DNA of 63,859 bases, filler included. It is 6 parts of 6 records of this genome, joined end to end, with 100 filler letters (N's around TTAATTAATTAA, not from the genome) between each part and the next. Parts side by side here need not be neighbours in the genome. Positions count along the whole stretch, not along the records: positions 18,739 to 26,240 come from SRR31156797_7535; 5 more parts are not named here. One strand, written 5' to 3'. The notes under the pieces were generated by a model, which saw nothing but the letters and a program-made list of their open reading frames with translations, made no database searches and was not told the DNA's origin. The translations under genes were made by a program, and so were the position numbers. Shown here one piece after another: positions 2,184-40,994 of the stretch. The stretch's first letter is position 1. Each line of letters opens with the position of its first letter.

Positions 2184-2186
2184 GCA

Positions 2187-3621: not shown

Positions 3622-3633
3622 GGGAGGTTTATT

Positions 3634-4581: not shown

Positions 4582-4592
4582 TAAGAGGGAAT

Positions 4593-5027: not shown

Positions 5028-5260
5028 ATTGCAATGGATGCCCGGCCCTTCCCCCTGAGCTTCTACCTGCCAACCGCCCCGCTTGGTGGCTTTATACGGA
5101 AATAGGGCCGACCGTATTTGATTTGTTCGGCGGCATAAGCCTTGCGAACATCGAAACGGGCTTAAAGATATACGGTGTGCCGCAAGCCCTGTGGTCCGAA
5201 ATAGCTGGAAAACTACTGGTGCTTGCCGACGGGTTGAGGCGAAAGGACGGCGATGACTAA
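4931..5260 (+). CDS. -1 frameshift extension of tail chaperone (gpGT equivalent, DUF1799-like); missing from the ORF track
   Basis: The -1 frame is open from the slippery site to TAA at 5258-5260: KLREFAVWLRDDGIDTCKSCR...DCNGCPALPPELLPANRPAWWLY...RKDGDD*. It ends overlapping the tape measure ATG. Confidence 0.8.
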   Translation, partial: KLREFAVWLRDDGIDTCKSCRIAHRQRTGTEIDCNGCPALPPELLPANRPAWWLYTEIGPTVFDLFGGISLANIETGLKIYGVPQALWSEIAGKLLVLADGLRRKDGDD

Positions 5261-7634: not shown

Positions 7635-7999
7635 TGACCACCATGACGCTCGGCGGATATACATTCGCCTGGAATCCTTCGGAATTCCCTATCCCGATGA
7701 AAAAGCGGTCAACGGCGAGCGTTGAAACCCTTGGCGGCGTCGAGTTTTATTCGTGGGGGCATTTCTGGCCAGGGCAAACATTGACGATGGGCTGGAAACA
7801 TATGCCGACGGCTCAGTATACGCAAATAAGGACATTGTACGAGGCGGATGCTGCGGTCACTTTCAATCCGGGAACGGGTGAAACTTTTACGGTCGAGATA
7901 CTCGAATTTTACGGGGCTGTTCATATCGAACAAAGCGGATCCGCTTCTTATCGAAAAGACGTTCAATTGACCTTGTTAATTCTAAGCGAGGATTCCTGA
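7634..7999 (+). CDS. Distal tail/minor tail protein
   Basis: 121 aa directly after the tape measure gene with TGATG coupling. Confidence 0.6.
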   Translation: MTTMTLGGYTFAWNPSEFPIPMKKRSTASVETLGGVEFYSWGHFWPGQTLTMGWKHMPTAQYTQIRTLYEADAAVTFNPGTGETFTVEILEFYGAVHIEQSGSASYRKDVQLTLLILSEDS

Positions 8000-11688: not shown

Positions 11689-12797
11689 TGCACCTGTACG
11701 GCCGCAAATTTGTTGACCAGAAATTGAAAAAGAAAGCCGATCAGCGGTCTGAAACCCGCGATGCTGTTCTCTGGGACGTGGATAGCGTGAATTATCAGGC
11801 ACGGGTGAAAATCCAGGGGTCGAACGAGTATGTTATAGCCCATTTCCCGAGGAACTGGACATCGGTTCCACATTGGCTTAAGTCCTGCAATGCGGTCCGA
11901 ATAATCCACAGAGGCGGCAGGCGCGGCTATATCGAACTCGTCGGAGAGGGGCGGGCGATTCCGTCGCCTGTCAGCGGCGGGGCCATGCCCACGCAGCCCG
12001 CGCTGAGCGACGGCGTTGTCTCGGGAATGGCACTATCTCCGGCGGCGTCAGGGCTTAACCTCATCGTCGATTCCGGCACATATCGAATCGATGGAACGGT
12101 CTACGTTTTTACGCCAACCGCGACCGGCAGCTATATCATAATGAACGACCCTCCGCCTATGATTATGGGGTCCGGCACGATCATGGGTGAAATACAGGCT
12201 ACAATTACTTTCGATGCGGCCCCGGCGGAGGGCTACGGACGATATGATGCTGCGGTGATAGGCATCGATGGAACCGTGGACTATCTTAAAGGCACTGCCT
12301 CCACCAACCCGGAAAAGCCCGCCATCCCCGGCAGCCATATCCTGATCGGAGACTATGTCCTTATCGTCGGCGGACAGACATCCATCAGTGACGAGGATAT
12401 CGGAGAGGAATGGACCGCCAGGGCGCCCGCATCTGTAACGATCACGGCTGATGACACATTCGCCTGGGACTCGGGAGACAATACGCCAGAAAAATCGATC
12501 ACGGTGACGATCAAGGACCAATACGGATGGAATCTTGACTGGGCCGCAGGCTACAGCCTGACTTTGGAATTGGCCAAAGGCACGGGTCAGGTATGGAGTG
12601 GTGACGACGGTTACGATGCGTCGAGCGTCAGCCATTCAACAACATCCTACACCTGCACGCTGAAATACCAGCGTGACCAGACGGCAAACCCGGAGATATC
12701 ACCCGTGTTTTTAATCACCGTGGACCTGCCATATACAGACCTACAGGACGTTCACCTGATGACCTTATTAGACAGCGGAGGGTCGGAAATTGCCTGA
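11688..12797 (+). CDS. Minor tail/virion structural protein
   Basis: TAATG coupling and a GGAGG RBS favour the ATG at 11688. Beta-rich, with RYDAAVI..DG...GTAS.NP..P pattern common in tail proteins. Confidence 0.6.
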   Translation: MHLYGRKFVDQKLKKKADQRSETRDAVLWDVDSVNYQARVKIQGSNEYVIAHFPRNWTSVPHWLKSCNAVRIIHRGGRRGYIELVGEGRAIPSPVSGGAMPTQPALSDGVVSGMALSPAASGLNLIVDSGTYRIDGTVYVFTPTATGSYIIMNDPPPMIMGSGTIMGEIQATITFDAAPAEGYGRYDAAVIGIDGTVDYLKGTASTNPEKPAIPGSHILIGDYVLIVGGQTSISDEDIGEEWTARAPASVTITADDTFAWDSGDNTPEKSITVTIKDQYGWNLDWAAGYSLTLELAKGTGQVWSGDDGYDASSVSHSTTSYTCTLKYQRDQTANPEISPVFLITVDLPYTDLQDVHLMTLLDSGGSEIA

Positions 12798-13014
12798 ATT
12801 ACTTGAAATATTAAAAGCCATACTTACCGCCTTGGAATATCAGAATCAACTCCTCGAAAGCCTTGTTGATTTAGAGGACGGGCGCAGGGCGGCGGCGGAA
12901 AAGAGCCGGGTCGATATGGATTCCGCCTTGGGCGGTTTGACGGCCGAGATAGAAAAGCTCACCCCGGGCATGGGCGCGGCGGTTGAGCAGATGTTAAAGG
13001 GGGTGACTAAATGA
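12790..13014 (+). CDS. Small hypothetical helical protein
   Basis: 74 aa, GGAGG RBS before TTG, overlaps both neighbours. Confidence 0.55.
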   Translation: MPELLEILKAILTALEYQNQLLESLVDLEDGRRAAAEKSRVDMDSALGGLTAEIEKLTPGMGAAVEQMLKGVTK

Positions 13015-14003
13015 GCAGTAATTACCATTCCCCATATGTGGACGGCACAACCCCATATAGCGCGTCCGGCATGAACGCGCCCCTGGGCGAATTGGACGCC
13101 GAAATCACCGATCTTACAGTCTTGGCTCAAGGGACCGTCAAAGACAAAGATTTGACCGCGCCTCCGGGAAGTCCGAGTAATGGCGATGCGTATATCGTCG
13201 GCGGGTCCGCCACAGGCGATTGGGCCGCTAAAGACAACCAGATCGCGGTCTATTGGGATTCGGGCTGGACATTCCAGGCTCCGGCTGAAGGCTGGAAAGT
13301 ATATGTCCAGGACGAAAATATCACCTACGTATACAACGGTTCTTCCTGGGCTGCGGATGCGGTCAACGCCCATGCTTCCGCCCATGTTGACGGCGGGTCC
13401 GATGAGATCGACGGTGATACCATAGATATTGATTTTACGCCGAGCAACTATACCCCGGATTCAACACCAGCCGAGGCGAATGATGTCGATGACCTGGCCG
13501 CGCACCTTAAGGGCATTGATGACGCCCTCGGCTCCGGTGGCGTGACCTATGCGACGGCGGCGGAAATCAACACAGGGACCGAGACCGGGAAAGTAGTCAA
13601 CCCCGACGCTTTGGCCGGCTCAATCCATGGAACAAAGACGGTCACGCTTTATGTGATCGATGCGGATACGGCGTTAGCGACCGGCGACGGAAAGTTGTAT
13701 TGGCCTGTCCCGAAATCCTTGGACGGTATGAACCTGGTCGAGGCATACGCCATCGTCAAAACGGCCTCAACCAGCGGGACGCCTACATTCCAGATTTACA
13801 ACGTTACCGATTCAGTGGACATGCTCTCGACGGCGATCACAATCGACGCCAACGAAACCCACAGCAAGGACGCTGCGACGGCTGCGGTGATCGATACAAG
13901 CAATGACGATGTCGCCCATGGCGACCTGTTAAGGATTGACTGCGACGCGGCCGGGACCGGGACTCAAGGCCTCTGGATCGAGATGTCTTTCAGGAAGCCG
14001 TAA
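13011..14003 (+). CDS. Tail fibre-associated protein with DUF2793 domain
   Basis: DLTAPPGSPSNGDAYIVGGSATGDWAAKDNQIA...GWTFQAPAEGW.VYV.DE matches the DUF2793 signature. Confidence 0.8.
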   Translation: MSSNYHSPYVDGTTPYSASGMNAPLGELDAEITDLTVLAQGTVKDKDLTAPPGSPSNGDAYIVGGSATGDWAAKDNQIAVYWDSGWTFQAPAEGWKVYVQDENITYVYNGSSWAADAVNAHASAHVDGGSDEIDGDTIDIDFTPSNYTPDSTPAEANDVDDLAAHLKGIDDALGSGGVTYATAAEINTGTETGKVVNPDALAGSIHGTKTVTLYVIDADTALATGDGKLYWPVPKSLDGMNLVEAYAIVKTASTSGTPTFQIYNVTDSVDMLSTAITIDANETHSKDAATAAVIDTSNDDVAHGDLLRIDCDAAGTGTQGLWIEMSFRKP

Positions 14004-14012
14004 GGAGCGGAC

Positions 14013-14987
14013 ATGGCGGCTCATCGCTACTGGCGACTTTATATCATCAGAGTGACCGGCGACGGCTATAAAAGGGCCGTTGAGGTCGAAATGAGGGCCT
14101 CTATAGGCGGTTCGAATGAGTGCGGGTCCGGGTCGGCTTCGGCGTCCACGACCTTTTCGGGCTACTCAGCCGCGGATGCTTTCGACGGCGACGCAGCCGA
14201 CAACGGATGGGCCTCCAACTCGGATAGCACAGATAATTACCAGTGGCTTAAATATGACTTCGGGTCCGGTAACGACGTTGAAATCAACGAACTCGCCATC
14301 ACCATAAACAAGGCCTATAACAACGGGCCGATCGATTTTGTCCTGCAATACTCGGACGACGATTCGACCTGGACGGACTGGATCTGGTGGTGTAGTCAAT
14401 CCGATTGGGATTCAGGGACCGGATACCAGACTCGGACTTTCAACAAGAACACCACAGGCGCGGTCTGGGGCGACAATTTCGCACCGAAAAACATGACCTC
14501 CAACTCCGCGCCGTCGCCTAATGTGGCGAGCGCGTCAACTGAATATTCGGCCCAATTTCCGGCTTACAAGGCTTTTTACGGCCTGTTTATAGGCACTCAG
14601 CGTTATTGGTCGGCCAGCACAACAACGGGCTGGCTAAAGATAGACCTGGGAAGCGGCAACGCGGACACTGCCGAAAAGTTTGTTGTCCGGATTAATACGA
14701 TGTCGGAAACCAACAGGGCGCCGAAGGATTTTACCCTTCAGGGCAGCAACAACGATTCTGACTGGACGACTCTTGGAACTTATACCGGTGAGTCCTCATG
14801 GTCGAACGGAGAGGGGCGGATATTCACCCTGTCCACGACCGGGAGCTATCGGTATTACAAGCTCGATATCACGGATAATAACGGCGGTTCGCTCGTCCAT
14901 GTCGCTGAATTGTATCTTATTAACCTTCACTCTGCCGGTTCGGGCAGTTCGGGCATTCCCGGCCAGAGGGCAATAATGGTGATGTGA
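14013..14987 (+). CDS. Tandem discoidin/F5-8 type C-like carbohydrate-binding virion protein
   Basis: Two copies of ASAST..AF.G..W.S..WLK.D.GSGN..F.LQ.S.D...WT, plus RY.RL.I strands. Confidence 0.75.
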   Translation: MAAHRYWRLYIIRVTGDGYKRAVEVEMRASIGGSNECGSGSASASTTFSGYSAADAFDGDAADNGWASNSDSTDNYQWLKYDFGSGNDVEINELAITINKAYNNGPIDFVLQYSDDDSTWTDWIWWCSQSDWDSGTGYQTRTFNKNTTGAVWGDNFAPKNMTSNSAPSPNVASASTEYSAQFPAYKAFYGLFIGTQRYWSASTTTGWLKIDLGSGNADTAEKFVVRINTMSETNRAPKDFTLQGSNNDSDWTTLGTYTGESSWSNGEGRIFTLSTTGSYRYYKLDITDNNGGSLVHVAELYLINLHSAGSGSSGIPGQRAIMVM

Positions 14988-14997
14988 GGTAATTAGT

Positions 14998-15228
14998 ATG
15001 GCTTTGACAGGGACAGAAACAGGCTTGATCGCCGCTGTGGTCGGACTGATAGCGGCGGGCGGCGGTGCTTGGGCCAACGGGCGAAACAAGGTGACAGTTA
15101 ATGAATGTATCCTCAAACATCGAGGCGAAGAGAAAGCCCATAAAACGGCCCTTGAGGATGTCAAAAATCGCCTTGAGAGGATCGAACACAAGCTCGACAA
15201 ATTAAATGGAGGGGGCGATCATGACTGA
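14998..15228 (+). CDS. Small membrane protein (holin-like), 1 TM plus coiled coil
   Basis: N-terminal TM (LIAAVVGLIAAGGGAW) and a LEDVKNRLERIEHKLDKL coil; directly upstream of the endolysin. Confidence 0.55.
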   Translation: MALTGTETGLIAAVVGLIAAGGGAWANGRNKVTVNECILKHRGEEKAHKTALEDVKNRLERIEHKLDKLNGGGDHD

Positions 15229-15790
15229 GAACTTTAATTTGGCTTTTGACCAGACCCTCGAACACGAGGGCGGTTATGCCGATCACCCGCGAGACCGGGG
15301 CGGCGAGACCTATAAGGGCGTCGCTCGTAATTTTTGGGGGAGTTGGCCCGGCTGGAAGATCATCGACGAGGCCAAGGCCAAACTCGGCAAAAATCCCAGG
15401 CATAAGCAAATCAATGCGGTCCTGGCCGGAAACAAAAAACTCGACAGCCTGATCCGGGAATTTTACAGAGAGCATTTCTGGATCGCTTCCGGCGCCGACC
15501 AGCTGCCTGATCAGCTCGCCCGGAAACACTTTAACTGTGCGGTCAATGTCGGCGTGGGCGGCGCTGTCCGTATTCTGCAAAGGGCGTTAAGGGCTCACGG
15601 CCAAATGATCGCGGTCGATGGCGCGTTCGGGCCGCGCACCAAGGCGGCGGCGTGGGCTGTTGTAGCCGAACCTTTGATCGACACCTATTGCCGGAAGCAG
15701 AAAAGTTATTACAAACGCATCATTGAGCGGAGACCGAGCCAAGTCGTGTTTCAAAAGGGTTGGTTTCGGCGGGCCGCGTTCAGGGGGTGA
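15221..15790 (+). CDS. Endolysin, glycoside hydrolase family 108 with peptidoglycan-binding C-terminus
   Basis: HEGGY.DHPRDRGGET.KG catalytic motif, LQRAL...VDG.FGPRT and F.KGW.RR. RBS GGAGG favours the ATG at 15221. Confidence 0.92.
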   Translation: MTENFNLAFDQTLEHEGGYADHPRDRGGETYKGVARNFWGSWPGWKIIDEAKAKLGKNPRHKQINAVLAGNKKLDSLIREFYREHFWIASGADQLPDQLARKHFNCAVNVGVGGAVRILQRALRAHGQMIAVDGAFGPRTKAAAWAVVAEPLIDTYCRKQKSYYKRIIERRPSQVVFQKGWFRRAAFRG

Positions 15791-15793
15791 GAC

Positions 15794-16381
15794 GTGGAGC
15801 TTAAAGACCTTGCCAATATCGGAAAAAAGATTGCTAAAGCTGGCCTGCCTCTCCTTGGCACTGCCCTGGGCGGTCCGCTCGGCATGAAAGCAGGCTTGCT
15901 TATCAGTTCCCTGATAGGCAAAACGCCCGAGGACATGACGCCGGAAGATTTCGACGGGATCCTCGCGAATCCGGAAATGATGGTCAAGTTAAAAGAAATC
16001 GAACTTAATCACGAGGTGGAATTACAGAAAATCATCCTGGAAGCCGAACGGATGCGCCTAGCAGATATCGCTGATGCTCGAAACCGGGAAATCGAAACCA
16101 CGAAAGCGACCGGCAAACGGGATTTTAACCTCTATGCCGTGGCCTGGCTTTACATCCTCGGCTTTTTCGCCTGTTTGATACTCTTGATCGTAATGCTATG
16201 GGCTGGCAAGTTCCCCGAGAAAATACCGGCTTCGGCGACCATGCTCATCGGATCGCTTTTCACGGCCCTTGTCTCCGGCGTCGGCGCGGTTCTTCAATAC
16301 TTTTTCGGGAGTTCAAAGGGGAGCTCGGATAAAAACAAGGTGATAGCCGCGGCCATGACTACGGCCCCCCAAATGAAATAA
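15794..16381 (+). CDS. Holin (3TM/GTA-holin-like)
   Basis: PLLGTALGGP N-terminus, D..DAR.RE, two TM segments and a YFFGSSKGS C-terminal motif. Confidence 0.75.
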   Translation: MELKDLANIGKKIAKAGLPLLGTALGGPLGMKAGLLISSLIGKTPEDMTPEDFDGILANPEMMVKLKEIELNHEVELQKIILEAERMRLADIADARNREIETTKATGKRDFNLYAVAWLYILGFFACLILLIVMLWAGKFPEKIPASATMLIGSLFTALVSGVGAVLQYFFGSSKGSSDKNKVIAAAMTTAPQMK

Positions 16382-16393
16382 TTTGCCAAAAGA

Positions 16394-16418
16394 GAGGCGG
16401 AGCACAAAACCCCGCCTC
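16394..16418. terminator. Stem-loop at end of phage late operon
   Basis: GAGGCGG-N11-CCGCCTC just after the holin stop, in the gap between convergent genes; U-tract is weak. Confidence 0.45.
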
Positions 16419-16545
16419 AATGCTCCTGTCTCGCGAACGGGCCAGCTAATTAATCTTCCTCGAATCTCAAGCTTCCGTCAGTTCATAGTTAATAAAACAT
16501 TCGAGGAGGGACAATGATTCTATTTCGCCTATGCCGTTATAAATC

Positions 16546-17931
16546 CTAATATTGTTGCGATGAGTTTTCGTTATATGTCACAGAACGTTTCCCTGTCCGA
16601 ATATACCACTCAATATGGCGTTCCATCAGTTCCTGGTAACCATCGGACATACTACCATCCCCATAGGACAGCAGTGATGCCTCAACATGGTTCCAACATT
16701 CATCTGCCTCAGCCTCAGTTAAACCACTCTCTTGTTGTAAAGATTCTATAGCATTAACGCGATTACCTAAGGAATACCCGTTAAAAATCGCCACTGCTGA
16801 GCATGCAAGCCAGCTTCCTATCTGCCAGTATTTTTCTATTTCTGTTGTGGTGGCTCTTCCAAAAAAATCGTCACGTGAATCGTAGCTAAAGCGCTCGCCA
16901 AAGGTTGCTGGGGACAGCCATACATGATCCCATAGAGCCACTCCACGCTCAGTGTCTTTTGGTGCAGGTGCCGGGTCAAAAAACTGTGTGCGGTCGAAAA
17001 GCTCATCCGTGTGTATCAAGTAACGTCCTTCACTTCCCTGCCAATTAAAGACCAACCCGATGTGGTGGGCTTCGGTGCCATTTGTTTCTACATAAGCGTT
17101 GTTCACTTTACGTACAGGAATATTGACACTGCGCATAAGATCGGCAAACAGGGATGAAGCGCTGGCACACCCTGAGGTATAATATCTATCCTCTTCCCCA
17201 CGATCCAGGCGGTCGGCTAGCGTATGATTTTCTTGTTGAATTGTGCTTATATTGTTACTTTCAGAATTATGCCAAAGATAATCGTGAAACCACTCTGATA
17301 GCTTTTGCCCCGTCTCTCCCGGAGTACCACCAATTAAGCAATTTTCCTGCTCTGGTTCCTTACTCATAAACCGATAGCCATCTCTTGGGTCCCCGAGAAT
17401 GTTTTCAGTGACCTCATTACGGGAACCTACGTAGACGACATAGTAGAGATTATTGTCAAGAGTAAGATAAGCGGAGAAAAATACTTTGCTACAAAGTAGG
17501 TAAGACAATTCGTGGTCACTCCATTCCTCAAGTCGCCAAGGTACACTACCGCTCATATCTAACCACAGGGCGTGAGCTACCCAGGCGAAATAGACATCCC
17601 GCGCAACAACCTCGTCACGATAGCCTAACCGTGACGAATCATCATTTACATGTGAGTCATTAGAAAGCGGAAGAGAATCAGCAATAGGCAGCGGCTCGTC
17701 GTAATAATAAGCCAAAAAACAATCACGCAGACGTCTTTTCCAGGCGGAAGGCCAGTCGTCATAGAACGTGTATCTACTTGAATCGCTCCCTTCAGGAGGC
17801 CACGTTTCGAATCGAAGTTGTTGCCGAATACGTGGTCGGCGCTCTAAATAATTTTTTAGGCGCAGGATCCCGCGCCATTTAAAGAGAAAAACCAGAAATA
17901 TATTTATTATCGACAATACTCTCCCCACCAT
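16546..17931 (-). CDS. Membrane-anchored hypothetical protein with transglutaminase/papain-like Cys-His-Asp motifs (moron)
   Basis: Long ORF, visibly more AT-rich than the structural genes. N-terminal hydrophobic anchor; GCASASSLFADLMRSVNIPVR...HHIGLVF...LIHTD. GAGGTG RBS favours the ATG at 17931 over 17946. Confidence 0.6.
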   Translation of the reverse strand: MVGRVLSIINIFLVFLFKWRGILRLKNYLERRPRIRQQLRFETWPPEGSDSSRYTFYDDWPSAWKRRLRDCFLAYYYDEPLPIADSLPLSNDSHVNDDSSRLGYRDEVVARDVYFAWVAHALWLDMSGSVPWRLEEWSDHELSYLLCSKVFFSAYLTLDNNLYYVVYVGSRNEVTENILGDPRDGYRFMSKEPEQENCLIGGTPGETGQKLSEWFHDYLWHNSESNNISTIQQENHTLADRLDRGEEDRYYTSGCASASSLFADLMRSVNIPVRKVNNAYVETNGTEAHHIGLVFNWQGSEGRYLIHTDELFDRTQFFDPAPAPKDTERGVALWDHVWLSPATFGERFSYDSRDDFFGRATTTEIEKYWQIGSWLACSAVAIFNGYSLGNRVNAIESLQQESGLTEAEADECWNHVEASLLSYGDGSMSDGYQELMERHIEWYIRTGKRSVTYNENSSQQY

Positions 17932-18325
17932 GATTACACCTCTCATTCTAAGTATTGTGTGAACCTGCGGAAAGATAGTTACAGAATATTATATCATGAA
18001 GCCTATTTTGGTGCTTTACCTATTGCCGGGTCGTGTCGAGAGTATATGATATGAATGGTGTTCAGATTATGGTTTAATCTCGAATTATGCAGCAACATCC
18101 GCGATTTCTCTGTTTCAAGCTCTCTGAGTTCGTTCTTGGCCCGTTGAAGAGCACTGATCCGGGCTGGAGAGCTTGTACTCCATCCACAAGAGGCGAATTC
18201 TCGCATCAAGTGGAGCAGGTTATAGACTCAAAGCTCCATTTTAAGTCTCGCCTGATTGGTATCGAACTTGTGGCAATTGGTTTTGTCCAAACGAAGAGGG
18301 TTCTTGCCTTTCTCATAGCAAATAA

Positions 18326-18637
18326 TCACGGCCTACACATCCCGCACGGCCTAAACCCGGCTTCAATAGCTTCTTCACGGGTCCGGAATACCGCCGTGCA
18401 GTTTTTACACCTATAACCCTGGCAGCCTGGCGCGTGAAAGACCATCGACTTCACATTACCATGGTATCCGTCGGCGGGGGCCAGGGTCGCGCCGACCGTC
18501 CTTATACCCCGCCTCCAATCCCAGGGCGGCACGGCGTTCTCATCTTTCCACAATCCAAGTTGATCGGCCTTGGCCTTTTCTTCTATCGAGGATAGCCGCT
18601 TTGAGTTACTGTATTTGCGATAGTGCCAGGCATAGCC
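18326..18637 (-). CDS. Thermonuclease (SNase) with C-terminal Ada-type metal-binding domain, 5'-truncated
   Basis: GYAWHYRKYS...EEKAKADQLGLWKDENAVPPWDWRR is an SNase C-terminus, followed by YHGNVKSMVFHAPGC...F.TREEAIEAGFRPCGMCRP. Confidence 0.85.
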   Translation of the reverse strand, partial: GYAWHYRKYSNSKRLSSIEEKAKADQLGLWKDENAVPPWDWRRGIRTVGATLAPADGYHGNVKSMVFHAPGCQGYRCKNCTAVFRTREEAIEAGFRPCGMCRP

Positions 18638-18638
18638 G

Positions 18639-18738
18639 NNNNNNNNNNNNNNNNNNNNNNNNNNNNNNNNNNNNNNNNNNNNTTAATTAATTAANNNNNN
18701 NNNNNNNNNNNNNNNNNNNNNNNNNNNNNNNNNNNNNN
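18639..18738. other. Artificial contig spacer
   Basis: N44-TTAATTAATTAA-N44. Confidence 0.99.
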
Positions 18739-18848
18739 GAAGGGGCCGTTTTAACAAGCTTATAGGCGTCCTGCCCGCTTCCTTTACGGTGCAGGCAATA
18801 GGCCAGCAGGTCCTTACCCATTAAGGCTATATTTCGATCAGCCGTCAT
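18739..18848 (-). CDS. 5' end of fourth gene of the TIR-Clp operon (truncated by contig end)
   Basis: AAGGAG RBS overlaps the previous stop; ATG at 18848; MTADRNIALMGKDLLAYCLHRKGSGQDAYKLVKTAP stays open to the contig edge. Confidence 0.65.
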
Positions 18849-18858
18849 TTGTTACTCC

Positions 18859-21552
18859 TTATTCCTTACCGACCGCTTCTCTCAGGTATGATTCCGCTTC
18901 ATCCCAGTTTTCAGCGCGCATGGCGATGCTGCCCAGGAGCAGGCGGGCCCTGGCGGAATAATCATCTTCGTGATTGTCGCTGACGATTTTCTTAAGTCCT
19001 TTTGCGGCCATGTCATCCAAACCGGCCATGGCCGCGGACAGGGACTTGTGAAACTGGACGGCGCGGTCGTCCGGATATCTCTTGTCCATTATGCTGAACA
19101 TCTGGAGGGCCTTTTCCAAATCCTGTCCTTGCAGCAGGGCCAGGCCCCGGATCATTTCCAGTTCCTTCCATTTGCCCGAGCGGTATTTCTTGGCCCTGTC
19201 AGCCAGCTCCAGGATTTCATCCGGTTTCATTTCCGGATCAAACAGCCGGGTGAAAGCCTGCCGGTAGTAGCATTGGGCGGCCGTGCTTTTAAGGGCTTCG
19301 ATTTCTTTTTCCGCATCCGGCGGAATTATTTCCAAACCTTTTTCAAGCAGGTCAATGGCTTGTTCATATCGCCCGCCGGTCATGGCTTCACGCGCGGCCA
19401 GGCTATGGAATACGGCCAGGTCCAGCTTGATTTCAGGAGTTTCAGATTCCGGCCCCATTTTTTGAAAAGCATTTATCGCATCCTGGTAACTACTGTTGCG
19501 ATAGTGGGAAAAACCCAGGTGGTACATAACGGAAGCCCGATTCCGGTCGGTTAGATCGATTTGTTCAAATAGTTCGGCGGATTTTTCAAATTCACCCAGT
19601 CCGAAGCGGCACATGGCCTGGGCAAAGTCAGCCGCCCGGCCCACAATGGCGTACAATTCGGCGGCTTCTGCCAGATTGCCTTCCTGTTCCAAAAGCGGGG
19701 CCAGGTATGCGGCCGCCCGCTTGTCCTTGTAGGAGTCGACGCTTTTGCGGGCCGTTTCCATGGCCTGGGCCGACTGGTCGACGCTGTTGAAGTATTCCAC
19801 CAGCAGCCACAGGCTGTCTGCGGAGAGCCGCTCAATGAAAGCAGGATCCAAATCGGCCAGGAAGCTGCTTTTCAAACCGGAATCAACAGCGGCCAGGCAC
19901 AGCTTTTTCAGCAAATTCTCATTTGCGGGCTCAAGTTGAAGAGCGGCTTCTACCGCATTAAGGGCTTTATCCGGATTTCCTGTCTCCTGGTAACATTCGG
20001 CCAGAATATCAAGGTCTGAAATGGTTAGTTTCCGCTCTTTAAAATAAGGCTCCAGGCAGGAAGCAGCCCGCTCGTAATCGGCAAGATCGAAAAGATAGCG
20101 GGCCAACATGCGATCCCGATCCAGGCCGGCCGCTACCTTTTCAAGCGCCTGGACAGCGTTTTCGGGAGGACGGCCTTTAAAGTACGCGGTCAGGTCGGAC
20201 AGCGATCCTTCACTGACCCAGACTTCACAGTGCAGAACGTCGGTTTCCTCGCCCGGAGGCAGTTTAGCCAGGACTGAAACGCCAAAAGAATCTATAAATT
20301 CACGAACACGGTCGTATTGTCCGTTTTGGGCCAGAAAAAGAGCCAAAATCTGATCCCGCCCTTTTTTTTCAGGCACGGATGAAAAAATCAGTTTTTCGCC
20401 TTCCTTGAGGCCATACCCTCCGGCAAGTTCAATAATATCATCATGCCTGCCTGCCAAGGCCAGCAGTTTAATCAGTTGCTTGTCGCGGCTCTTGGTCTTG
20501 GGCAACCCCTCTATAACTTCCAGGGCGACCTTCAGCCTCATGGAACTGACCAGGTTGCCTATTTTCCCCCAATTATCGATCTTGACAAGAAGCGGTATCA
20601 AGACGCGATTCCGCTCGTCGGACTTGGGCAGGCTCTCGACCAGTTTTATCGCGGCCTTGGCGTCGTCATAGACCTCGGCTCTGTTCCGGATCGCATCAAA
20701 ATCATTCTTACCGGCATAGAGTTTCAGCAGAAGCTTGTCGTATTTCATCTTGAGCGGCAGCTTTTCAAGAAGGCTAATGGCCTTTTCGACCTGATTCCGG
20801 TTGACCGCCATGTTTGCTTCCATCCAGGTCAGTTCTTCGGACTCTCCACCTGCAGCCCTGGCCTGTTTAATCGACTTTTCAAGCTGTTTCCAGTCCTTCA
20901 GATGAAAGTAGCCTTTGCAGGCAAATACCAGGGCCTTTTCGTACGATCCCTTTTCCCTGGTCGTCATTATCCGCGCCCATACCAGGCCGAAAAATAACAT
21001 AAGTAAAAATCCGGCGGGAAGATAGACATGGAGTTCATACATTTCCCCGCCAAACTCCTGAATGCCGGCGCTGAGTATGAAAACAGCGATGACAAAAAGA
21101 AAAGAAGCTTTAAACCCGATCCGTTTTCCCACAAGCCCGCCGAAAAGAAGGGTCACAATAAATTCAATAAATGAGAAGTAGAAGCCTTGAACAGCCTTGA
21201 AAAAAACAAAGTAGAGGATGGCTGTGGAAGCCAGAACAGCCATGGTCTTTTTTGAAGGAAATTGGCTCAGCAGCTTTTCAATTCGTTCGGGCAGTTCATC
21301 TTTATCAATCGAAGAAATTTTTTTATCAATATCGGTTCCAAAAACTTCCGAGGCCGAAACCCGGTTGAGGCTGCCCATAAAGGCAGCGACAATAAAGCCG
21401 CCGGCAGCGATAAGCACCAGCCAATGCTCCTGTTGGGGCATATTGTCGAACCAGAAATCCGGCGTCAGTTCAAATAGAAAATAGTCAAACCTTGCAAGAT
21501 ATGACAAGAGCATTGATAAAAGGTCGAATAATTTTGAATTCATGGCGTCCAT
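18859..21552 (-). CDS. Multi-pass membrane protein with long alpha-solenoid/TPR region
   Basis: 897 aa; several hydrophobic segments in the first ~195 aa, then TPR-like repeats (LAECYQETGNPDKALNAVEAALQLEP, YHLGFSHYRNSSYQDAINAFQK). Confidence 0.85.
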   Translation of the reverse strand: MDAMNSKLFDLLSMLLSYLARFDYFLFELTPDFWFDNMPQQEHWLVLIAAGGFIVAAFMGSLNRVSASEVFGTDIDKKISSIDKDELPERIEKLLSQFPSKKTMAVLASTAILYFVFFKAVQGFYFSFIEFIVTLLFGGLVGKRIGFKASFLFVIAVFILSAGIQEFGGEMYELHVYLPAGFLLMLFFGLVWARIMTTREKGSYEKALVFACKGYFHLKDWKQLEKSIKQARAAGGESEELTWMEANMAVNRNQVEKAISLLEKLPLKMKYDKLLLKLYAGKNDFDAIRNRAEVYDDAKAAIKLVESLPKSDERNRVLIPLLVKIDNWGKIGNLVSSMRLKVALEVIEGLPKTKSRDKQLIKLLALAGRHDDIIELAGGYGLKEGEKLIFSSVPEKKGRDQILALFLAQNGQYDRVREFIDSFGVSVLAKLPPGEETDVLHCEVWVSEGSLSDLTAYFKGRPPENAVQALEKVAAGLDRDRMLARYLFDLADYERAASCLEPYFKERKLTISDLDILAECYQETGNPDKALNAVEAALQLEPANENLLKKLCLAAVDSGLKSSFLADLDPAFIERLSADSLWLLVEYFNSVDQSAQAMETARKSVDSYKDKRAAAYLAPLLEQEGNLAEAAELYAIVGRAADFAQAMCRFGLGEFEKSAELFEQIDLTDRNRASVMYHLGFSHYRNSSYQDAINAFQKMGPESETPEIKLDLAVFHSLAAREAMTGGRYEQAIDLLEKGLEIIPPDAEKEIEALKSTAAQCYYRQAFTRLFDPEMKPDEILELADRAKKYRSGKWKELEMIRGLALLQGQDLEKALQMFSIMDKRYPDDRAVQFHKSLSAAMAGLDDMAAKGLKKIVSDNHEDDYSARARLLLGSIAMRAENWDEAESYLREAVGKE

Positions 21553-21573
21553 ATTACTTCCGGTCTTCTATTT

Positions 21574-22776
21574 TCAGGCGCTCCCGGCTTTTAAAGCCAG
21601 GCGAAGCGACTTGATTTTTCGGCTAAGTTGTTTATCCCGGCTAAGGCTTTCGGCCTTGCCTAAAGCGTCTTCCGCCTCCTGCTTACGCCCCAGTTGCATC
21701 AATGTGGCGCCAAGGCGCAGGTGTATTCCGGGTTCCTCGGGATCAATTTCAAGGGCCTGTTTTATTAAATCGCAGGCTTCGGTCTGCCGATGACACCTGT
21801 TAAGCAAATTGGCCAGGGCCATGTACCCCCTGGAATCATCAGGGCAGCGGCTTAATAAAACCCGCAGGGTCTGTTCCGCCTTGCGGATTGATCCGCCGGC
21901 CGACATTTCATTGGCGATTGTAAGCTCGCGCGGAGGCTCCAGAGCGGCGATCAAGGTTTGCATATCCTGGTAACGATCCTCGGGCCGCTTTGAAATGGCT
22001 TTTATAATAACTTTTTCAAGATGCAGAGGGATGGCGGGGTCCTTGGTCCGGAGCGGGGCCGGGTCCGAGTTGTTCATCCACTCAATCAGTTTGTATTCGG
22101 TGATGCCTTCCGTAAAATACGGCAGGGTTCCGGTGAGCATTTCGTAAAGGGTCATGCCCAGTGAAAAGACATCCACCCTGTGGTCGCCCCGGCGATGAAT
22201 CAATACTTCCAGCGGAGTGTAGAACCTGGTGTGTCCCCCGAATTCGGTTTCAAAAGAACCGGACCTGTCCATAACCGAGGCCATGCCAAAATCCAGGATT
22301 TTGGCCGTGTCTCCTGCTTGTTCAATAATAATGTTTTCCGGTTTAATGTCCCGGTGGACCATTTTCTTGTTGTGAGCCGCATCCAGCCCTTGCGCCACCT
22401 GGAGGGCGTATTTCAAGGCCTTTTCCAGGGGCAGCCGTTTAGCCGTGTTGGGCATGCCGAGAAGCTGGCGGAGCAGTATCCCTTCCACATATTCCATTAC
22501 CAGGGCGTATCGGCCGCCCGCGCTGATAGTGGCAATATACCTGGCGATAAAAGGTTCTTCGTTGAGTTGGGCCAGGGAAGGAATATCGCCCTTGACCAGG
22601 GATTCTTCCTTGGCCCGGTCATGGGGCACTTTAACGGCCACAAAGTCGCCGTATTTTTTTTCGACGTCCGAATAAAGATACGTGGTGGCAAAGCCGCCCG
22701 TTCCCAGGGTTCTTACGTATTTGAAACCCTTGATTTCGATTCCGTTACTCACAGGTCCTTGCTCAGCTTTCCACAA
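21574..22776 (-). CDS. Hanks-type Ser/Thr protein kinase with C-terminal TPRs
   Basis: LGTGGFATTY, VAVK, HRDIKPEN, DFG and DVFSLG motifs; TPR-like C-terminus (ALEIDPEEPGIHLRLGATLMQLGRKQEA). Overlaps the upstream gene by 14 nt. Confidence 0.93.
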   Translation of the reverse strand: MWKAEQGPVSNGIEIKGFKYVRTLGTGGFATTYLYSDVEKKYGDFVAVKVPHDRAKEESLVKGDIPSLAQLNEEPFIARYIATISAGGRYALVMEYVEGILLRQLLGMPNTAKRLPLEKALKYALQVAQGLDAAHNKKMVHRDIKPENIIIEQAGDTAKILDFGMASVMDRSGSFETEFGGHTRFYTPLEVLIHRRGDHRVDVFSLGMTLYEMLTGTLPYFTEGITEYKLIEWMNNSDPAPLRTKDPAIPLHLEKVIIKAISKRPEDRYQDMQTLIAALEPPRELTIANEMSAGGSIRKAEQTLRVLLSRCPDDSRGYMALANLLNRCHRQTEACDLIKQALEIDPEEPGIHLRLGATLMQLGRKQEAEDALGKAESLSRDKQLSRKIKSLRLALKAGSA

Positions 22777-25441
22777 AGGCTATGCGCCCGTCTTTGAGGA
22801 CGGCCTTGTATCCCACGCCCCTGTTCAGTTTACCGGCGGCCAGTTCCCTGGCCAGGGGACGGCCCAATGTTTTTTCAAAAGCCCGGTTCAATTCATGCCC
22901 GCCGCCTCCGCCGACCTGGTCGGCGATAAAGTCCAGGACGTTTTCTTCGGCAGTAATTTCGATTCCTTTTCTAACCAGCATTTCATTGAGCCGTCGCAGG
23001 TTTTGCCTGGCCATTTTCTTAAAGGCGACTTCGTCCAACGGCTTGAAAGGAATCATTTCATCGATCCGGTTCAGGAATTCAGGCCTGAAAGTGCGATCCA
23101 ACTCCTCACGAAGATCCAGGCTGATAATACCTTCGCTCTCTTCCATGAACCCGATGCGGTGCTTGTGACGGTCCAGTATTCGGGCTCCTACATTAGAGGT
23201 CATTACAAAATAGGCTTCGCGGGCGTTAACGGTTTTTCCTCTTGAATCCGTAAGCCGTCCTTCGGAAAAAACCTGCAGAAACAGATCGTGTATCTCGGGG
23301 TGGGCTTTTTCCACTTCATCCAAAAGAACCAGTGAATACTGGTTGCGCCAGAGGAATCCTGTTAACTGCCCCTCCCGGTCATGGCCGACATAACCCGGAG
23401 GAGACCCGACCAGGCGGGATATGGAGTGAGCTTCCTTGAATTCGCTCATATCAAGGCGCAGCATGGACTGTTCACTGTGAAATATGCCGCTGCACAGGGC
23501 CTTGGCCAGTTCCGTTTTGCCTGTTCCGGAAAGTCCGAGAAAGAGAAAAACTCCCCTGGGCCGGGTGGGCTCACGAAGCCCGGCCTGAGCTTGCAACACT
23601 GAATCGGCAATCCTTTTAACTGCTTCATCCTGGCCGACGACACGGCTTTGCAGATAGCTTTCAAGTTGGAGGAATTCCGATTTTCCGCTTTTTTCCAGTT
23701 CCTGAAAGGGAATGCCGCTCATTTCGGATATGACCAGCATCACGCTTTCCGTGTTGACAATGGTTGACTGCGTGGAATTGCCTACTCCGGAATCAGGCTT
23801 ATCCATGGTCTGGGAAAAAAAGCTCAGCGTGGGGATCTTGGCCGTTGTGCAAGCTTGCTCCATAAGGTTAATGGCCTTGTCCGGCAGATAGCGGTCGGAA
23901 ACATACCTGACGGAAAAGTCGACGGCTGCTTCCAGGGCGTCGTCTTCTATGATTACATCATAGTGTTTTTCCATTTTGGGCTTTATACGGGCCAGAAGCT
24001 CCACAGCTTCATCCGGGGACATTTCTTCAACTTCAACAGGTTCAAACCTGCGGTCAAGGGCTGGATCGCCGGCCAGGATGGTCTGATATTCATCCATGGT
24101 CGTGGCCCCGATCATGCGCATCCGCCCCCGCCCGAGGGCTGGTTTGAGCATATTGGCAGCGTCAAGGGATCCGCCGCCCTTGCCCGCGCCAAGAATGGTA
24201 TGAACTTCGTCTATGAATAAAACCATGTCCGGGTCGGCGGCGGCAACGTCCAGGATTTCGGTAAGCCTTTGTTCAAATTCGCCCCGGTACTTGGAACCGG
24301 CCACAAGATTGCCCATGGATATTTCTATGATGCGGATGTTTTTCATTTCTTCCGGCACCTTGCCGGACACGATCCGCTGGGCCAGTCCTTCCACGAGAGC
24401 GGTTTTGCCTACGCCGGGATCGCCCAAAAGCAGGGGATTGTTTTTTTCTCTTTTGAGCAGGCACCTGGCCAGCATGGTCATCTCTTTTTGGCGGCCGATA
24501 ACGGGCGACAGGTCTCCCTGTGAGGCCAGGGCCGTCAAATCTCGTCCTATCTGCCCAAGCACGCCTGGCAGAGGAATGACAAAGCCGGCCGCCGCCTTCC
24601 TGAGGGACTTGATATCGAATCCTATGGTTGCCAGAAACTTTAGGGCGGCGCATTCAGGGTCAAGTGAGAGAAGTCCTAAAACAAGGTCCTTTTCGGACAC
24701 CTGCCGCCCGGCCGCGCCGGCATTGTTGACGGCCGAATTCAAGACCCCCAATGTCTCGCCGTTGGGTTCGATTTCGCCGCCTTCGACCGCTGTTCCGCGA
24801 CCTATGAATCCGCGCATTCTGCGGCGGACCTGCTCCGGTTCACGGCCCTGGTCCGTCAGCAGGGAGCTGAAAAAATGCATTTTGGTCATGGCGCACAGGA
24901 TATGCTCGGCACCGATATAATTATGCTTCATGAAGCCGGCTTCCCAGAGGGCTTCACGAACCATTTCGGCAACCGCGGGTCCGAGTTGTTCTCCCGGAGG
25001 CCATGATACTTCACCCGTGAACGCGGCCACGGCTTCCAAGCCTTCTTCGGTAAGTGTAACCGACTGCATGGACCTGAGGCTGAGAGGAAGGTCGTCTATG
25101 GTCATATCACCGGCCAAAACCGTGACCAGGTTGCCTGATTTACGGCCGGAATTAAGTTCGTTGAGAAATATGTGCCATTCGGCCTTGACCCAGCGGGATT
25201 CGATGTTTTTTCGGGAGGTCCCGACCACAACCATATGCCGGCATTCCCCCAGGGCCTGGTATATGGTTTCCTGAAAATCGGCCTGTCCTGCTTCCTGGAC
25301 GGCTTCTTCGCTAAGGAAAGCCGGGATGCCCCGCTTGGTCAAAAAGTCATAGACCCGGCGGGCATGCACGAGGTCCTTCCCATTTTTGGATATAAAAACA
25401 TTCCAGCGAGGCGTCCTGCCGTCATTGCTTTCAGCGTTCAT
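22763..25441 (-). CDS. TIR domain fused to ClpA/ClpC-type Hsp100 AAA+ ATPase (TIR-ClpN-D1-D2)
   Basis: TIR: VFISK..D...VYDFL..RGI.AF, MVVVGT, SRWVKAEW. Clp_N: HNYIGAEHIL. D1: GDPGVGKT, KYRGEFE, LFIDEVH. D2: GLSGTGKT, GYVG, LLDEVEKAH. IGF loop present. GGAGG RBS. Confidence 0.92.
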   Translation of the reverse strand: MNAESNDGRTPRWNVFISKNGKDLVHARRVYDFLTKRGIPAFLSEEAVQEAGQADFQETIYQALGECRHMVVVGTSRKNIESRWVKAEWHIFLNELNSGRKSGNLVTVLAGDMTIDDLPLSLRSMQSVTLTEEGLEAVAAFTGEVSWPPGEQLGPAVAEMVREALWEAGFMKHNYIGAEHILCAMTKMHFFSSLLTDQGREPEQVRRRMRGFIGRGTAVEGGEIEPNGETLGVLNSAVNNAGAAGRQVSEKDLVLGLLSLDPECAALKFLATIGFDIKSLRKAAAGFVIPLPGVLGQIGRDLTALASQGDLSPVIGRQKEMTMLARCLLKREKNNPLLLGDPGVGKTALVEGLAQRIVSGKVPEEMKNIRIIEISMGNLVAGSKYRGEFEQRLTEILDVAAADPDMVLFIDEVHTILGAGKGGGSLDAANMLKPALGRGRMRMIGATTMDEYQTILAGDPALDRRFEPVEVEEMSPDEAVELLARIKPKMEKHYDVIIEDDALEAAVDFSVRYVSDRYLPDKAINLMEQACTTAKIPTLSFFSQTMDKPDSGVGNSTQSTIVNTESVMLVISEMSGIPFQELEKSGKSEFLQLESYLQSRVVGQDEAVKRIADSVLQAQAGLREPTRPRGVFLFLGLSGTGKTELAKALCSGIFHSEQSMLRLDMSEFKEAHSISRLVGSPPGYVGHDREGQLTGFLWRNQYSLVLLDEVEKAHPEIHDLFLQVFSEGRLTDSRGKTVNAREAYFVMTSNVGARILDRHKHRIGFMEESEGIISLDLREELDRTFRPEFLNRIDEMIPFKPLDEVAFKKMARQNLRRLNEMLVRKGIEITAEENVLDFIADQVGGGGGHELNRAFEKTLGRPLARELAAGKLNRGVGYKAVLKDGRIAFVES

Positions 25442-26240
25442 TCGCTGACACCTCCGAAGTGATAACGTTTAAAGGTCGAACTTTACTAAACAACCGATAT
25501 CATTCACGGCCCAGCGATTTTAACGACACAAGGGTCGGCCTCAATAGAGGCCGGGGAAATTAGTGACAGCGTTATGACGAATTACAGGTTTTGCGGACTC
25601 CGCTTCCCAATCTCATCGTATTAAAGAGATATAGTCACGCAAGAAACTATTTTTAATACAGCAATCGATTTTCCCCTGGTTGCGATCTTTCGGCCGGGCG
25701 CCTTAAATACACAAAATAGCAAATCATTTCATTAGATTAACAGCCCAGTCCCCAAATCAGTTTAATGAGTAGGCCGATCTATTTTTGTTATCATACTCAA
25801 GGCCCCGGGTCAAGAAAACCGGGCTTAAACCGCCCAACACCAATCATTATTACACTCATTAAACTGACAGACATCCAATTTAATATTAATCTTGACACCC
25901 ATTTTTAATAATAATTGAGAAAAATCTGCTTTAATTCGGAATAAAACGCCCTCTAAATAAAAAATAACGAGTTGGGTTGAAATATTGGTTTCGTATATAT
26001 AATTCCGGAGAAATTAAATTTAAAAAAGGCGCTTTTCTTTGAAAAAAGACGTACCTATTCTATATAAGGCATGAAACCTAATCTTAGCAGGAAAATAGGA
26101 ATGTGATTACTCAGGAGGGTGAAAAAGCCTGGGCGCAGATTTTGACGCCGCCCAGCCAGCGAAGTCCGGATGACCGCGCGGCTTTGATCATGGAGTCAAT
26201 ACGGCCGACTGCACGGTGGAAAAGGCCGCCGTAACCTTGC

Positions 26241-26340
26241 NNNNNNNNNNNNNNNNNNNNNNNNNNNNNNNNNNNNNNNNNNNNTTAATTAATTAANNNN
26301 NNNNNNNNNNNNNNNNNNNNNNNNNNNNNNNNNNNNNNNN
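26241..26340. other. Artificial contig spacer
   Basis: N44-TTAATTAATTAA-N44. Confidence 0.99.
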
Positions 26341-34597: not shown

Positions 34598-34697
34598 NNN
34601 NNNNNNNNNNNNNNNNNNNNNNNNNNNNNNNNNNNNNNNNNTTAATTAATTAANNNNNNNNNNNNNNNNNNNNNNNNNNNNNNNNNNNNNNNNNNNN
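34598..34697. other. Artificial contig spacer
   Basis: N44-TTAATTAATTAA-N44. Confidence 0.99.
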
Positions 34698-40585: not shown

Positions 40586-40668
40586 CGCTTAACAATACAG
40601 GGAATGGGAGGGCGTTGGCAAGGACGGATTAACGATGTGGGATTCGGTACTTGCTCCCGCCAGGAACT

Positions 40669-40894
40669 CTAATCTTTCTGAAGCTTATCCTTGTAGGCTC
40701 CCGGCGACATGCCCTGGTACTTTTTAAAGACCCTGATAAAGGTATTAGCGCTGTTGAAGCCCAGCTCCTTTGCCAGGCTCTTAATCTTGGTCTTTTCATC
40801 TTTCTCCAGGATCTTCAGGGCCTGATCGATACGGTACTGGTTCAGTACATCCTTGAAATTGGATCCTGTTGCCCTTTTGAAGAGAATGCTGCTG
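40669..40894 (-). CDS. AraC-family regulator, C-terminal fragment (5'-truncated; not in ORF track)
   Basis: SILFKRATGSNFKDVLNQYRIDQALKIL...IKSLAKELGFNSANTFIRVFKKYQGMSPGAYK. Confidence 0.88.
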
Positions 40895-40994
40895 NNNNNN
40901 NNNNNNNNNNNNNNNNNNNNNNNNNNNNNNNNNNNNNNTTAATTAATTAANNNNNNNNNNNNNNNNNNNNNNNNNNNNNNNNNNNNNNNNNNNN
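40895..40994. other. Artificial contig spacer
   Basis: N44-TTAATTAATTAA-N44. Confidence 0.99.

Follow-up and report, generated by a model that had tools for sequence, protein, structure and literature searches.

The window analysed here, a stretch of 63,859 bases, consists of six unrelated metagenome contigs joined end to end, and one of these contigs, at positions 18739–26240, carries a gene for a protein (P0001) in which an N-terminal TIR domain is fused to the body of a Clp/Hsp100 unfoldase. Each joint is made of a 44-N block, the 12-mer TTAATTAATTAA and a second 44-N block. GC content steps from 0.55 to 0.51, 0.34, 0.5–0.6, and 0.42 between the pieces, and their gene content is mutually unrelated; hence, findings that span or compare across the joints do not concern linked DNA. 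The genuine neighbourhood of the TIR-Clp gene is the 7.5 kb of its own contig only, and the other five contigs, being unrelated DNA by gene content, were discarded as its context. By gene order and spacing, the TIR-Clp gene is the first in an operon of at least four genes of an uncultured bacterium, and the genes behind it encode a Hanks-type Ser/Thr kinase with C-terminal TPRs (P0002), a membrane protein with a long TPR array (P0003), and the beginning of a fourth protein. The coordinates of all features are collected in Table 1.

Table 1. Features of the TIR-Clp contig and joints of the window; positions count along the whole window (aa, amino acids; ORF, open reading frame).
Feature	Position	Strand	Basis
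TIR-Clp fusion gene (P0001), 892 aa, ATG start	22763..25441	-	ORF, translation, Pfam
TIR domain, aa 12-145	25007..25408	-	Pfam TIR_2, model, Foldseek
SRWVKAEW, aa 82-89, with W84 and putative catalytic E88	25175..25198	-	conservation, alignment to AbTIR and oyster TIR-STING
Clp N-domain, aa ~155-290	24572..24979	-	weak Pfam Clp_N, phmmer to ClpC, P0126 alignment
D1 AAA module and lid, aa ~300-541	23819..24544	-	Pfam AAA, AAA_lid_9; motifs
Ser/Thr-rich D1-D2 linker, aa 542-566 (25 residues)	23744..23818	-	site of the ClpB/ClpC M-domain
D2 AAA module and D2-small domain, aa 567-892	22766..23743	-	Pfam AAA_2, ClpB_D2-small; ClpC D2 alignment
RIGF, aa 762-765, at the position of the ClpP-docking tripeptide	23147..23158	-	alignment to ClpC and ClpA loop
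D2 sensor-2 site GGGGGHELNR, aa 844-853	22883..22912	-	GAR in relatives
Hanks-type Ser/Thr kinase with C-terminal TPR (P0002)	21574..22776	-	Pfam Pkinase E 2.5e-40, TPR
Membrane protein with long TPR array (P0003), 897 aa	18859..21552	-	Pfam TPR families, hydropathy
Fourth gene, first 36 codons, cut by the contig end	18739..18848	-	translation; ATG 10 nucleotides after P0003 stop
Upstream ~800 nucleotides without convincing ORF, partly AT-rich	25442..26240	.	ORF scan
Linkers	18639-18738, 26241-26340, 34598-34697, 40895-40994, 56383-56482		N44-TTAATTAATTAA-N44

Pfam assigns TIR_2 to residues 15–133 of P0001 (E 1.5e-13, 51.7 bits, cut-off 28), Clp_N to residues 171–207 (a weak match, 22.0 bits against a cut-off of 20.7), AAA to 337–449, AAA_lid_9 to 476–536, AAA_2 to 627–795 (E 2e-52), and ClpB_D2-small to 802–875. 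In a phmmer comparison with the PDB, residues 166–537, i.e., the N-domain and D1, are paired with residues 19–405 of Bacillus subtilis ClpC, and the match to the NCBIfam ClpB model begins at residue 159. The N-domain and the two AAA modules are present; each module has its Walker A/B pair and its pore-loop tyrosine, and the arginine fingers are found as well. The D1 motifs are GDPGVGKT (Walker A), KYRG (pore loop), LFIDEVH (Walker B), and ALDRRF; those of D2 are GLSGTGKT (Walker A), GYVG (pore loop), and LLDEVEKA (Walker B). Read from these motifs, the ATPase machinery appears largely intact. The earlier note on this DNA, made from the letters alone, had already described such a protein: TIR motifs including SRWVKAEW (a WxxxE motif) in the N-terminal part, Clp_N and two AAA modules with Walker A/B motifs and the KYRG and GYVG pore loops, a short Ser/Thr-rich linker instead of the ClpB/ClpC coiled coil between D1 and D2, and RIGF within D2. 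This anatomy is upheld in all its parts by Pfam (TIR_2 for the region around residues 82–89), phmmer, and motif reading, by alignments and a structural model for the linker, and by the alignment of residues 762–765 with VGF of ClpC and IGL of ClpA.

The TIR assignment is supported by structure prediction. An AlphaFold2 model of residues 1–170, built on a 29-sequence alignment, has a mean predicted local distance difference test score (pLDDT) of 87.6 and a predicted template-modelling score (pTM) of 0.79; it follows the alternating strand-helix order of TIR domains, with E88 located within helix 83–98, after strand 69–74. A Foldseek search of the PDB with this model gave 52 matches at E ≤ 1e-3, and those listed are all TIR-type domains: the top match is the human SARM1 TIR (E 2e-6), and TIR-STING, SPARTA TIR-APAZ, AbTir, ROQ1, and RPP1 are also found. 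AlphaFold2 and Foldseek thus agree on a TIR fold for the N-terminus, one of the points on which the earlier note had made its reading depend.

The domain has a large family of relatives. A HMMER search with residues 1–170 of 1.84 billion representative proteins yielded 4044 relatives at E ≤ 1e-3, including 1258 at E ≤ 1e-10. The 150 best relatives contribute 155 TIR stretches, and E88 occurs in every one of them (155/155) and W84 in nearly all (153/155). The family profile aligns W84xxxE88 with the WxxxE motif of the bacterial TIR chains 8g83 (named ‘NAD(+) hydrolase AbTIR’), 7uwg, and 7uxr, and phmmer pairs SRWVKAEW with the same motif of oyster TIR-STING (6wt6). The aligned glutamate corresponds to the catalytic residue of SARM1 (E642) and AbTir. 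The fold matches and the invariant glutamate suggest that the domain belongs to an enzyme-type TIR family, and by analogy with the characterized members it would cleave NAD+. Its relatives include proteins with the architectures Pkinase-TIR-FGE-sulfatase, TIR-caspase, TIR-WD40, TIR-TPR, and RelA/SpoT-TIR (17 of the 150 best matches scanned), which look typical of bacterial conflict systems, as well as the short proteins P0125 and P0128, whose TIR domains are 57–63% identical to that of P0001. A complex prediction with four copies of residues 10–145 scored 0.02 against a mark of 0.32; it was run with no controls and did not use the family alignment, and it counts neither way.

The Clp body is closest in build to ClpA. 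Escherichia coli ClpA is matched in a single stretch (P0001 residues 301–875 to ClpA residues 175–728); ClpC and ClpB match in two stretches, with their M-domains skipped. At the residue level, ClpC 405–467 has no counterpart, and approximately 21 residues bridge D1 and D2. In a multiple alignment of Clp bodies (A3), the coiled-coil insert of typical ClpC, about 50 columns long, is missing in P0001 and its two closest homologues, P0005 and P0006 (described below), and likewise in 12 of the 30 other ClpC-like relatives; M-domain-less ClpC-like proteins therefore form a wider group. Concordantly, the full-length model (pLDDT 76.5) contains no coiled coil between helix 521–544 and strand 560–562. 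Use of this model was confined to the junction of D1 with D2 and to the loop within D2; residues ~215–380 have a pLDDT below 50 because alignment A3 is mixed and poor there.

In the alignment, RIGF falls on the ...KY-VGF loop of ClpC and on the ...SIGL loop that the ClpB-ClpA (BAP) chimera 5ofo takes from ClpA. An x-G-F tripeptide is kept at this position in 25/30 ClpC-like relatives, and the full-length model places RIGF in an unstructured loop (762–774). The IGF loop may thus serve for binding of ClpP. The sensor-2 site of D2 deviates: all 30 ClpC-like relatives have GAR, whereas P0001 and P0005 have GGH and P0006 has SGH, so that loss of the sensor-2 arginine is a marker of the clade formed by these three proteins. 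Identity to the ClpC-like relatives in alignment A3 is only 35–40%, and P0001 falls below every curated Clp cut-off of NCBIfam: ClpA (TIGR02639), 602 against 993; ClpB (TIGR03346), 649 against 1232; ClpV, 580 against 885; and PRK11034, 457 against 1350.

The fusion is real. Its reading frame is unbroken, and a 16,792-bp contig of sequencing run X1, probably the source of the window DNA, contains the stretch 18739–26240 with 0 differences. A 16,846-bp contig of run X2, from another study and another year, covers 18739–26149 colinearly with 287 substitutions and 0 gaps (96% DNA identity; 3.9% of positions differ). The two assemblies agree throughout the operon and across the TIR-Clp junction, so that the fusion cannot be put down to misassembly. 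An 892-aa protein from another study's contig, P0005, is 97–98% identical to P0001, and it was the one protein found among 1589 candidates in a word-index search with residues 1–170. The two proteins differ in 27 of 892 residues, of which two fall within the 145 residues of the TIR part and none within the 25 residues 541–565, which overlap the linker. The TIR fold, the WxxxE motif, and the small number of TIR changes (2/145, compared with a DNA difference of 3.9%) were counted for an enzyme-type TIR.

Two further sequences join a TIR to a Clp N-domain. A partial copy on a JGI metagenome contig (L023), which ends inside the gene, encodes a TIR+Clp_N part 63% identical to P0001, and a complete 328-aa TIR+Clp_N protein without AAA rings (P0126), encoded on a 1.18-Mb contig, is 41% identical over 310 aa. 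TIR-Clp_N may thus recur as an independent module. The earlier note had left room for an isolated misassembly, which is contradicted by the X2 contig, P0005, L023, and P0126. We conclude that the fusion exists, is under purifying selection, and is very rare.

Among the best 120 of 7953 Clp matches, the TIR_2 accession was seen only for P0005. A word-index search for shorter TIR+Clp_N proteins returned five matches, all TIR-only, but it missed P0126 and hence says little. One candidate locus in the species-representative genomes (L020), with a match to query residues 72–840 that apparently reached into the TIR, was rejected as an ordinary 766-aa ClpC-like gene without TIR. The nearest cluster of the ESM Atlas (score 0.84, a lead only) contains 50 members of about 296 aa, mostly from Chloroflexota, with a CAP12/Pycsar-type TIR and Clp_N. 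No description of a TIR fused to Clp/Hsp100 was found in the literature searched, in which subscription journals were mostly uncovered and supplements, including the figure source data of PMC7159879, were outside the scope.

The best Clp match after P0005 is P0006, which has 1395 aa and is 54% identical across 83% of the query; the remaining Clp matches (among the 120 best of 7953) have at most 47% identity over comparable lengths. P0006 contains, in this order, a probable signal peptide, a Peptidase_C14 caspase domain (111–327), a strong hydrophobic helix (387–411), a nucleotide cyclase domain (439–579), and a C-terminal part in which N-domain, D1, and D2 follow one another, with a VGF loop but no M-domain. 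Its caspase is nearest to the NCBIfam model ‘caspase, EACC1-associated type’ (a conflict-system type) but below the cut-off. A tree of 37 Clp bodies places P0001, P0005, and P0006 together on a long branch (Shimodaira–Hasegawa-like approximate likelihood ratio test, SH-aLRT, 100), adjoining the M-domain-less ClpC-like proteins. The architecture of P0006 is equally undescribed. A TIR in one branch and a caspase with a cyclase in the other, on a common Clp body, resemble the swappable-output pattern of conflict systems. Among more distant Clp bodies, the locus L001 5206–7992 of a Spirochaetales metagenome-assembled genome encodes a 928-aa M-domain-less Clp protein (42% identity) in which a TPR array of about 300 aa replaces the N-domain; the gene adjoins those for enolase and acetate kinase.

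The kinase P0002 has the full set of catalytic motifs (GTGGF, AVKV, HRDIKPEN, and DFG). As an ORF it shares 14 nucleotides with the end of the TIR-Clp gene, stop codon included; the start codon is likelier to be the GTG at 22752, located behind an AAGGA ribosome-binding site 10 nucleotides after the TIR-Clp stop. P0003 starts 21 nucleotides after the kinase stop and has 4–5 hydrophobic helices within aa 42–198; in the ESM Atlas it retrieved only generic TPR clusters. The 36-codon fragment of the fourth gene has no Pfam match, and the contigs of X1 and X2 both extend about 9.3 kb beyond the 18739 end, toward this gene. The region of ~800 nucleotides upstream of the operon presumably holds the promoter. 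One promoter-like site (25544–25517, minus strand) was found there at a level not above shuffle expectation, and the terminator scan gave a likewise unremarkable result. The same non-coding region contains a perfect 14-nucleotide inverted repeat (25757–25770 and 25854–25867, spacer of 83 nucleotides), which may be an operator or due to chance; it was the only item found by the repeat scan, and searches for Rfam families and tRNA genes gave no match on the contig. No ClpP gene is seen on 18739–26240, nor in 51 of the 52 ORFs of at least 90 aa in the window (a 99-aa ORF at 40651–40950 was left out). Upstream of the partial TIR-Clp_N copy, L023 encodes, at 256–1707, a protein of 483 aa that combines a single membrane helix with BamD/YfiO-like repeats; it is similar in type to P0003 (membrane plus helical repeats), but no homology between the two was detectable (best local alignment E 0.006, 18 residues).

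The other pieces of the window are of varied origin. Positions 1–18638 are a phage or prophage piece with genes for a head-tail attachment protein, a tail tube, a 793-aa tape-measure protein, a GH108 lysozyme, a 1229-aa protein without Pfam match, a DUF2793 protein, and an F5/8 type C domain protein; a 466-aa ORF on the opposite strand (16546–17946), with a lower GC content of 0.47, has only a faint transglutaminase-core match. The contig at 40995–56382 carries two adjoining genes of the ADP-dependent phosphofructokinase/glucokinase family and genes for an archaeal-type CCA-adding enzyme, a WD40 protein, a DUF3644 protein, and an FGE-sulfatase-domain protein; it is probably from a different, archaeal organism. 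Xanthine-dehydrogenase and ABC-transporter genes are found on the low-GC contig, and BamA/OmpH genes on one further contig.

Several known systems resemble the TIR-Clp protein in part. SARM1 provides the best fold match and has the same WxxxE-type glutamate, and its TIRs, as those of P0001 would be, are attached to a stable ring oligomer and must be released or paired before they act. Its scaffold, however, is an octamer of SAM domains, carries an ARM autoinhibitory domain, and lacks an ATPase, whereas that of P0001 would be a two-ring AAA+ unfoldase with pore loops and a ClpP-type loop. In TIR-NLR and TIR-STAND proteins (plant ROQ1 and RPP1; bacterial TIR-STAND), the TIR is also placed on an oligomerising P-loop NTPase, but the NTPase of P0001 is a classical Clp/Hsp100 module without a C-terminal repeat sensor; its NACHT and nSTAND matches stay sub-threshold at 23–26 bits, which is P-loop level. 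ClpA and ClpC share with P0001 the N-domain, the D1 and D2 Walker motifs, the pore-loop tyrosine, and the x-G-F/L loop, and ClpA also lacks the M-domain; P0001 differs from them in its N-terminal TIR, its scores below the ClpA, ClpB, and ClpV cut-offs, and GGH in place of GAR. In ClpC, a short coiled-coil M-domain, the part through which ClpC is regulated, is located in the small domain of D1 and is missing from P0001. Unlike ClpB/Hsp104, P0001 has no long M-domain coiled coil, carries an IGF loop, and scores below the TIGR03346 cut-off. The ctsR-mcsA-mcsB-clpC locus of Bacillus also encodes a Clp unfoldase beside a protein kinase and a helper; here, the kinase is a Hanks kinase with TPRs rather than the arginine kinase McsB, and McsA and CtsR are missing. 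D2 matches the PADLOC models of DolB from the Dodola system and of PDC-M37B (E 4e-27 and 2e-30), but only over residues ~580–752 and with no DolA or other partner gene, and these matches appear to reflect generic AAA_2 similarity.

A resemblance of another kind exists to chaperone-based conflict systems (Kaur, Burroughs, Iyer, and Aravind, 2020; PMC7159879). Passages of that paper describe AAA+ chaperones as threshold switches for interchangeable effectors including TIR, caspase, and cyclic nucleotide monophosphate (cNMP) cyclase domains, with kinases and TPR or other repeat proteins as accessories. The core of those systems is a MoxR-vWA pair or a GTPase, unlike in the one described here, and the sole Clp-related item in the passages on Clp, ClpA, and ClpN is a rare ClpN repeat fused to vWA. 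No vWA or GTPase gene was found on the 7.5-kb contig, and the only MoxR-type Pfam match, bpMoxR, is sub-threshold (20.4 bits against 27); the resemblance is conceptual only. In its proposed working the TIR-Clp protein is similar to SARM1 and TIR-NLRs, and in its build to ClpA, but it belongs to neither family.

TIR NADases depend on a self-association that an oligomeric scaffold induces, e.g., in SARM1, TIR-NLR resistosomes, TIR-STING, and SPARTA. By analogy, we propose that the Clp ring of P0001 may serve as such a scaffold, with the kinase and TPR proteins or a captured client as the gate, NAD+ cleavage as the output, and ClpP docked below. The Clp body would form the usual ATP-bound hexamer, with six TIRs on flexible tethers above the ring that stay unproductive until a signal arrives. 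This signal could be phosphorylation by the Hanks kinase-TPR protein, itself perhaps controlled by the membrane TPR protein; alternatively, it could be a client caught by the N-domain and the pore. Adjacent TIRs would then pair to form composite active sites, and the output would be NAD+ cleavage, resulting either in depletion, with growth arrest or death of the abortive-infection type, or in a signal derived from ADP-ribose. The IGF loop would dock the ring on the ClpP of the host, coupling the response to client degradation or to self-limitation. That the ring activates the TIRs, that the kinase acts as a gate, and that the system serves in conflict or defence is thus proposed from analogy with the systems compared above.

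The earlier note had seen ATP- or substrate-driven hexamerisation itself as the event that clusters and activates the TIRs, possibly making the protein a suicide switch coupled to proteostasis. The anatomical half of that idea stands, given the TIR with a catalytic-type glutamate, the ClpA-like double ring without M-domain, and the IGF tripeptide at the docking position, but its trigger is weakened, and several other observations also weigh against the scaffold proposal. A ClpA-type, M-domain-less Clp protein is expected to hexamerise whenever ATP is bound, so that assembly would be constitutive; therefore, hexamerisation alone would hardly serve as a trigger, and some further gate is required. 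Candidates for this gate are the kinase of the operon, the N-domain, and substrate engagement, the choice of any of them being conjecture. Moreover, since P0126 has TIR and Clp_N without rings, the ring may not activate the TIR. The behaviour of the motor is uncertain because the sensor-2 arginine is lost and the Walker A motif of D2 (GLSGTGKT) is unusual, and the D2 ATPase may act differently from those of ClpA and ClpC. The caspase of P0006, preceded by a probable signal peptide and followed by a membrane helix, may be an extracytoplasmic sensor, which weakens the notion of an effector swap.

The genomic surroundings and the distribution of the fusion add to these points. PADLOC recognised no known defence system on the contig and returned, apart from the D2-only partial matches to DolB and PDC-M37B, generic kinase matches; its best TIR match is SAVED_TIR (E 0.005). 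The visible 7.5-kb context shows no marks of a defence island or mobile element. P0002 shares no more than a generic similarity (31%) with the kinase that is joined to a related TIR in P0130. Of the 150 best TIR relatives, just two (P0005 and P0126) match the N-domain and just one (P0005) the AAA body. No fusion was found in 185,579 species-representative genomes, where the 22 loci retrieved are all plain Clp bodies with 31–42% identity, and TIR+Clp_N relatives were found neither in viral contigs nor in plasmids or phage collections. Because a ClpA-like ring assembles constitutively, P0126 is ringless, and the enzymatic part is argued from analogy, we advance the ring-scaffold proposal tentatively, as somewhat less than probable.

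The strongest competing explanation is that the TIR is a recruitment handle that captures other TIR proteins or filaments for the unfoldase and ClpP, the ring acting as an off-switch or threshold-setter in the way TRIP13 does for HORMA proteins in CBASS. The motor, with its pore loops and ClpP-type loop kept, looks built to thread clients, and N-terminal extensions of Clp proteins usually select clients, as in ClpE and ClpG. Partners are plausible in view of the size and the many architectures of the TIR family (the 4044 representatives mentioned above) and of the similarity of this TIR to those of P0125 and P0128. The description of AAA+ chaperones as thresholding switches in passages of PMC7159879 also suits a handle. 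On the other hand, the catalytic-type glutamate and the tryptophan are retained, although a recent fusion might have lacked the time to lose both, and the 7.5-kb contig shows no further TIR gene. We consider this explanation unlikely, if worth keeping in mind. A further point against a handle is that we know of no Clp protein that targets TIR assemblies.

Somewhat more improbable still, in our judgement, is a specialised proteostatic or regulatory Clp protein, whose substrates would be tagged or adapted by the Ser/Thr kinase in a manner similar to McsB-ClpC, with the TIR as an NAD+-linked metabolic input or minor accessory and no role in conflict or death. An operon of unfoldase, protein kinase, and helper does resemble mcsA-mcsB-clpC. 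The M-domain is missing in 12/30 relatives, and M-domain-less ClpC-like proteins with other N-termini occur in ordinary contexts, e.g., the TPR-Clp protein of L001; the PADLOC result would also fit a housekeeping locus. However, TIRs with the catalytic glutamate are, as far as known, NAD+- or nucleotide-cleaving enzymes of conflict or signalling, the sister protein P0006 bears a caspase and a cyclase, every curated Clp equivalog cut-off is failed, and the extreme rarity speaks against a housekeeping role. Finally, a trivial joining of a TIR gene to a separate Clp gene in assembly or gene calling, against which caution is warranted in a window of concatenated metagenome contigs, can be practically dismissed given the unbroken frame, the agreement of X1 (0 differences) and X2 (0 gaps), the identical 892-aa length of P0005, and the independent TIR-Clp_N junctions of L023 and P0126.

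TIR NADases are central to bacterial, plant, and animal immunity, and for each family the key question is how their activity is restrained and released. To our knowledge, the known TIR scaffolds are all STAND/NLR oligomers, SAM rings, Argonaute complexes, or ligand-induced filaments. A TIR placed on an unfoldase with a ClpP loop would link protein unfolding or degradation directly to NAD+ signalling or cell death, and TIR-Clp would make a compact testable model because its parts are soluble and Clp assays are ready. If TIR-Clp were instead a disassemblase of TIR assemblies, it would represent a new kind of off-switch for TIR signalling. The sister protein with a caspase and a cyclase suggests that the Clp body may be a reusable platform, which would extend the idea of the chaperone as a threshold switch from MoxR-type ATPases to classical Clp proteins. 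More broadly, this small undescribed ClpA-like clade could comprise activation platforms for nucleotide-signalling and death domains, with the TIR in one branch and the caspase and cyclase in its sister, where client capture or phosphorylation turns six TIRs into an active NADase above ClpP; we regard this generalisation as possible yet doubtful. If true, it would mean that a protein-unfolding machine is used as an immune or suicide sensor, and it would add a third route of TIR activation to STAND/NLR oligomers and ligand-driven filaments.

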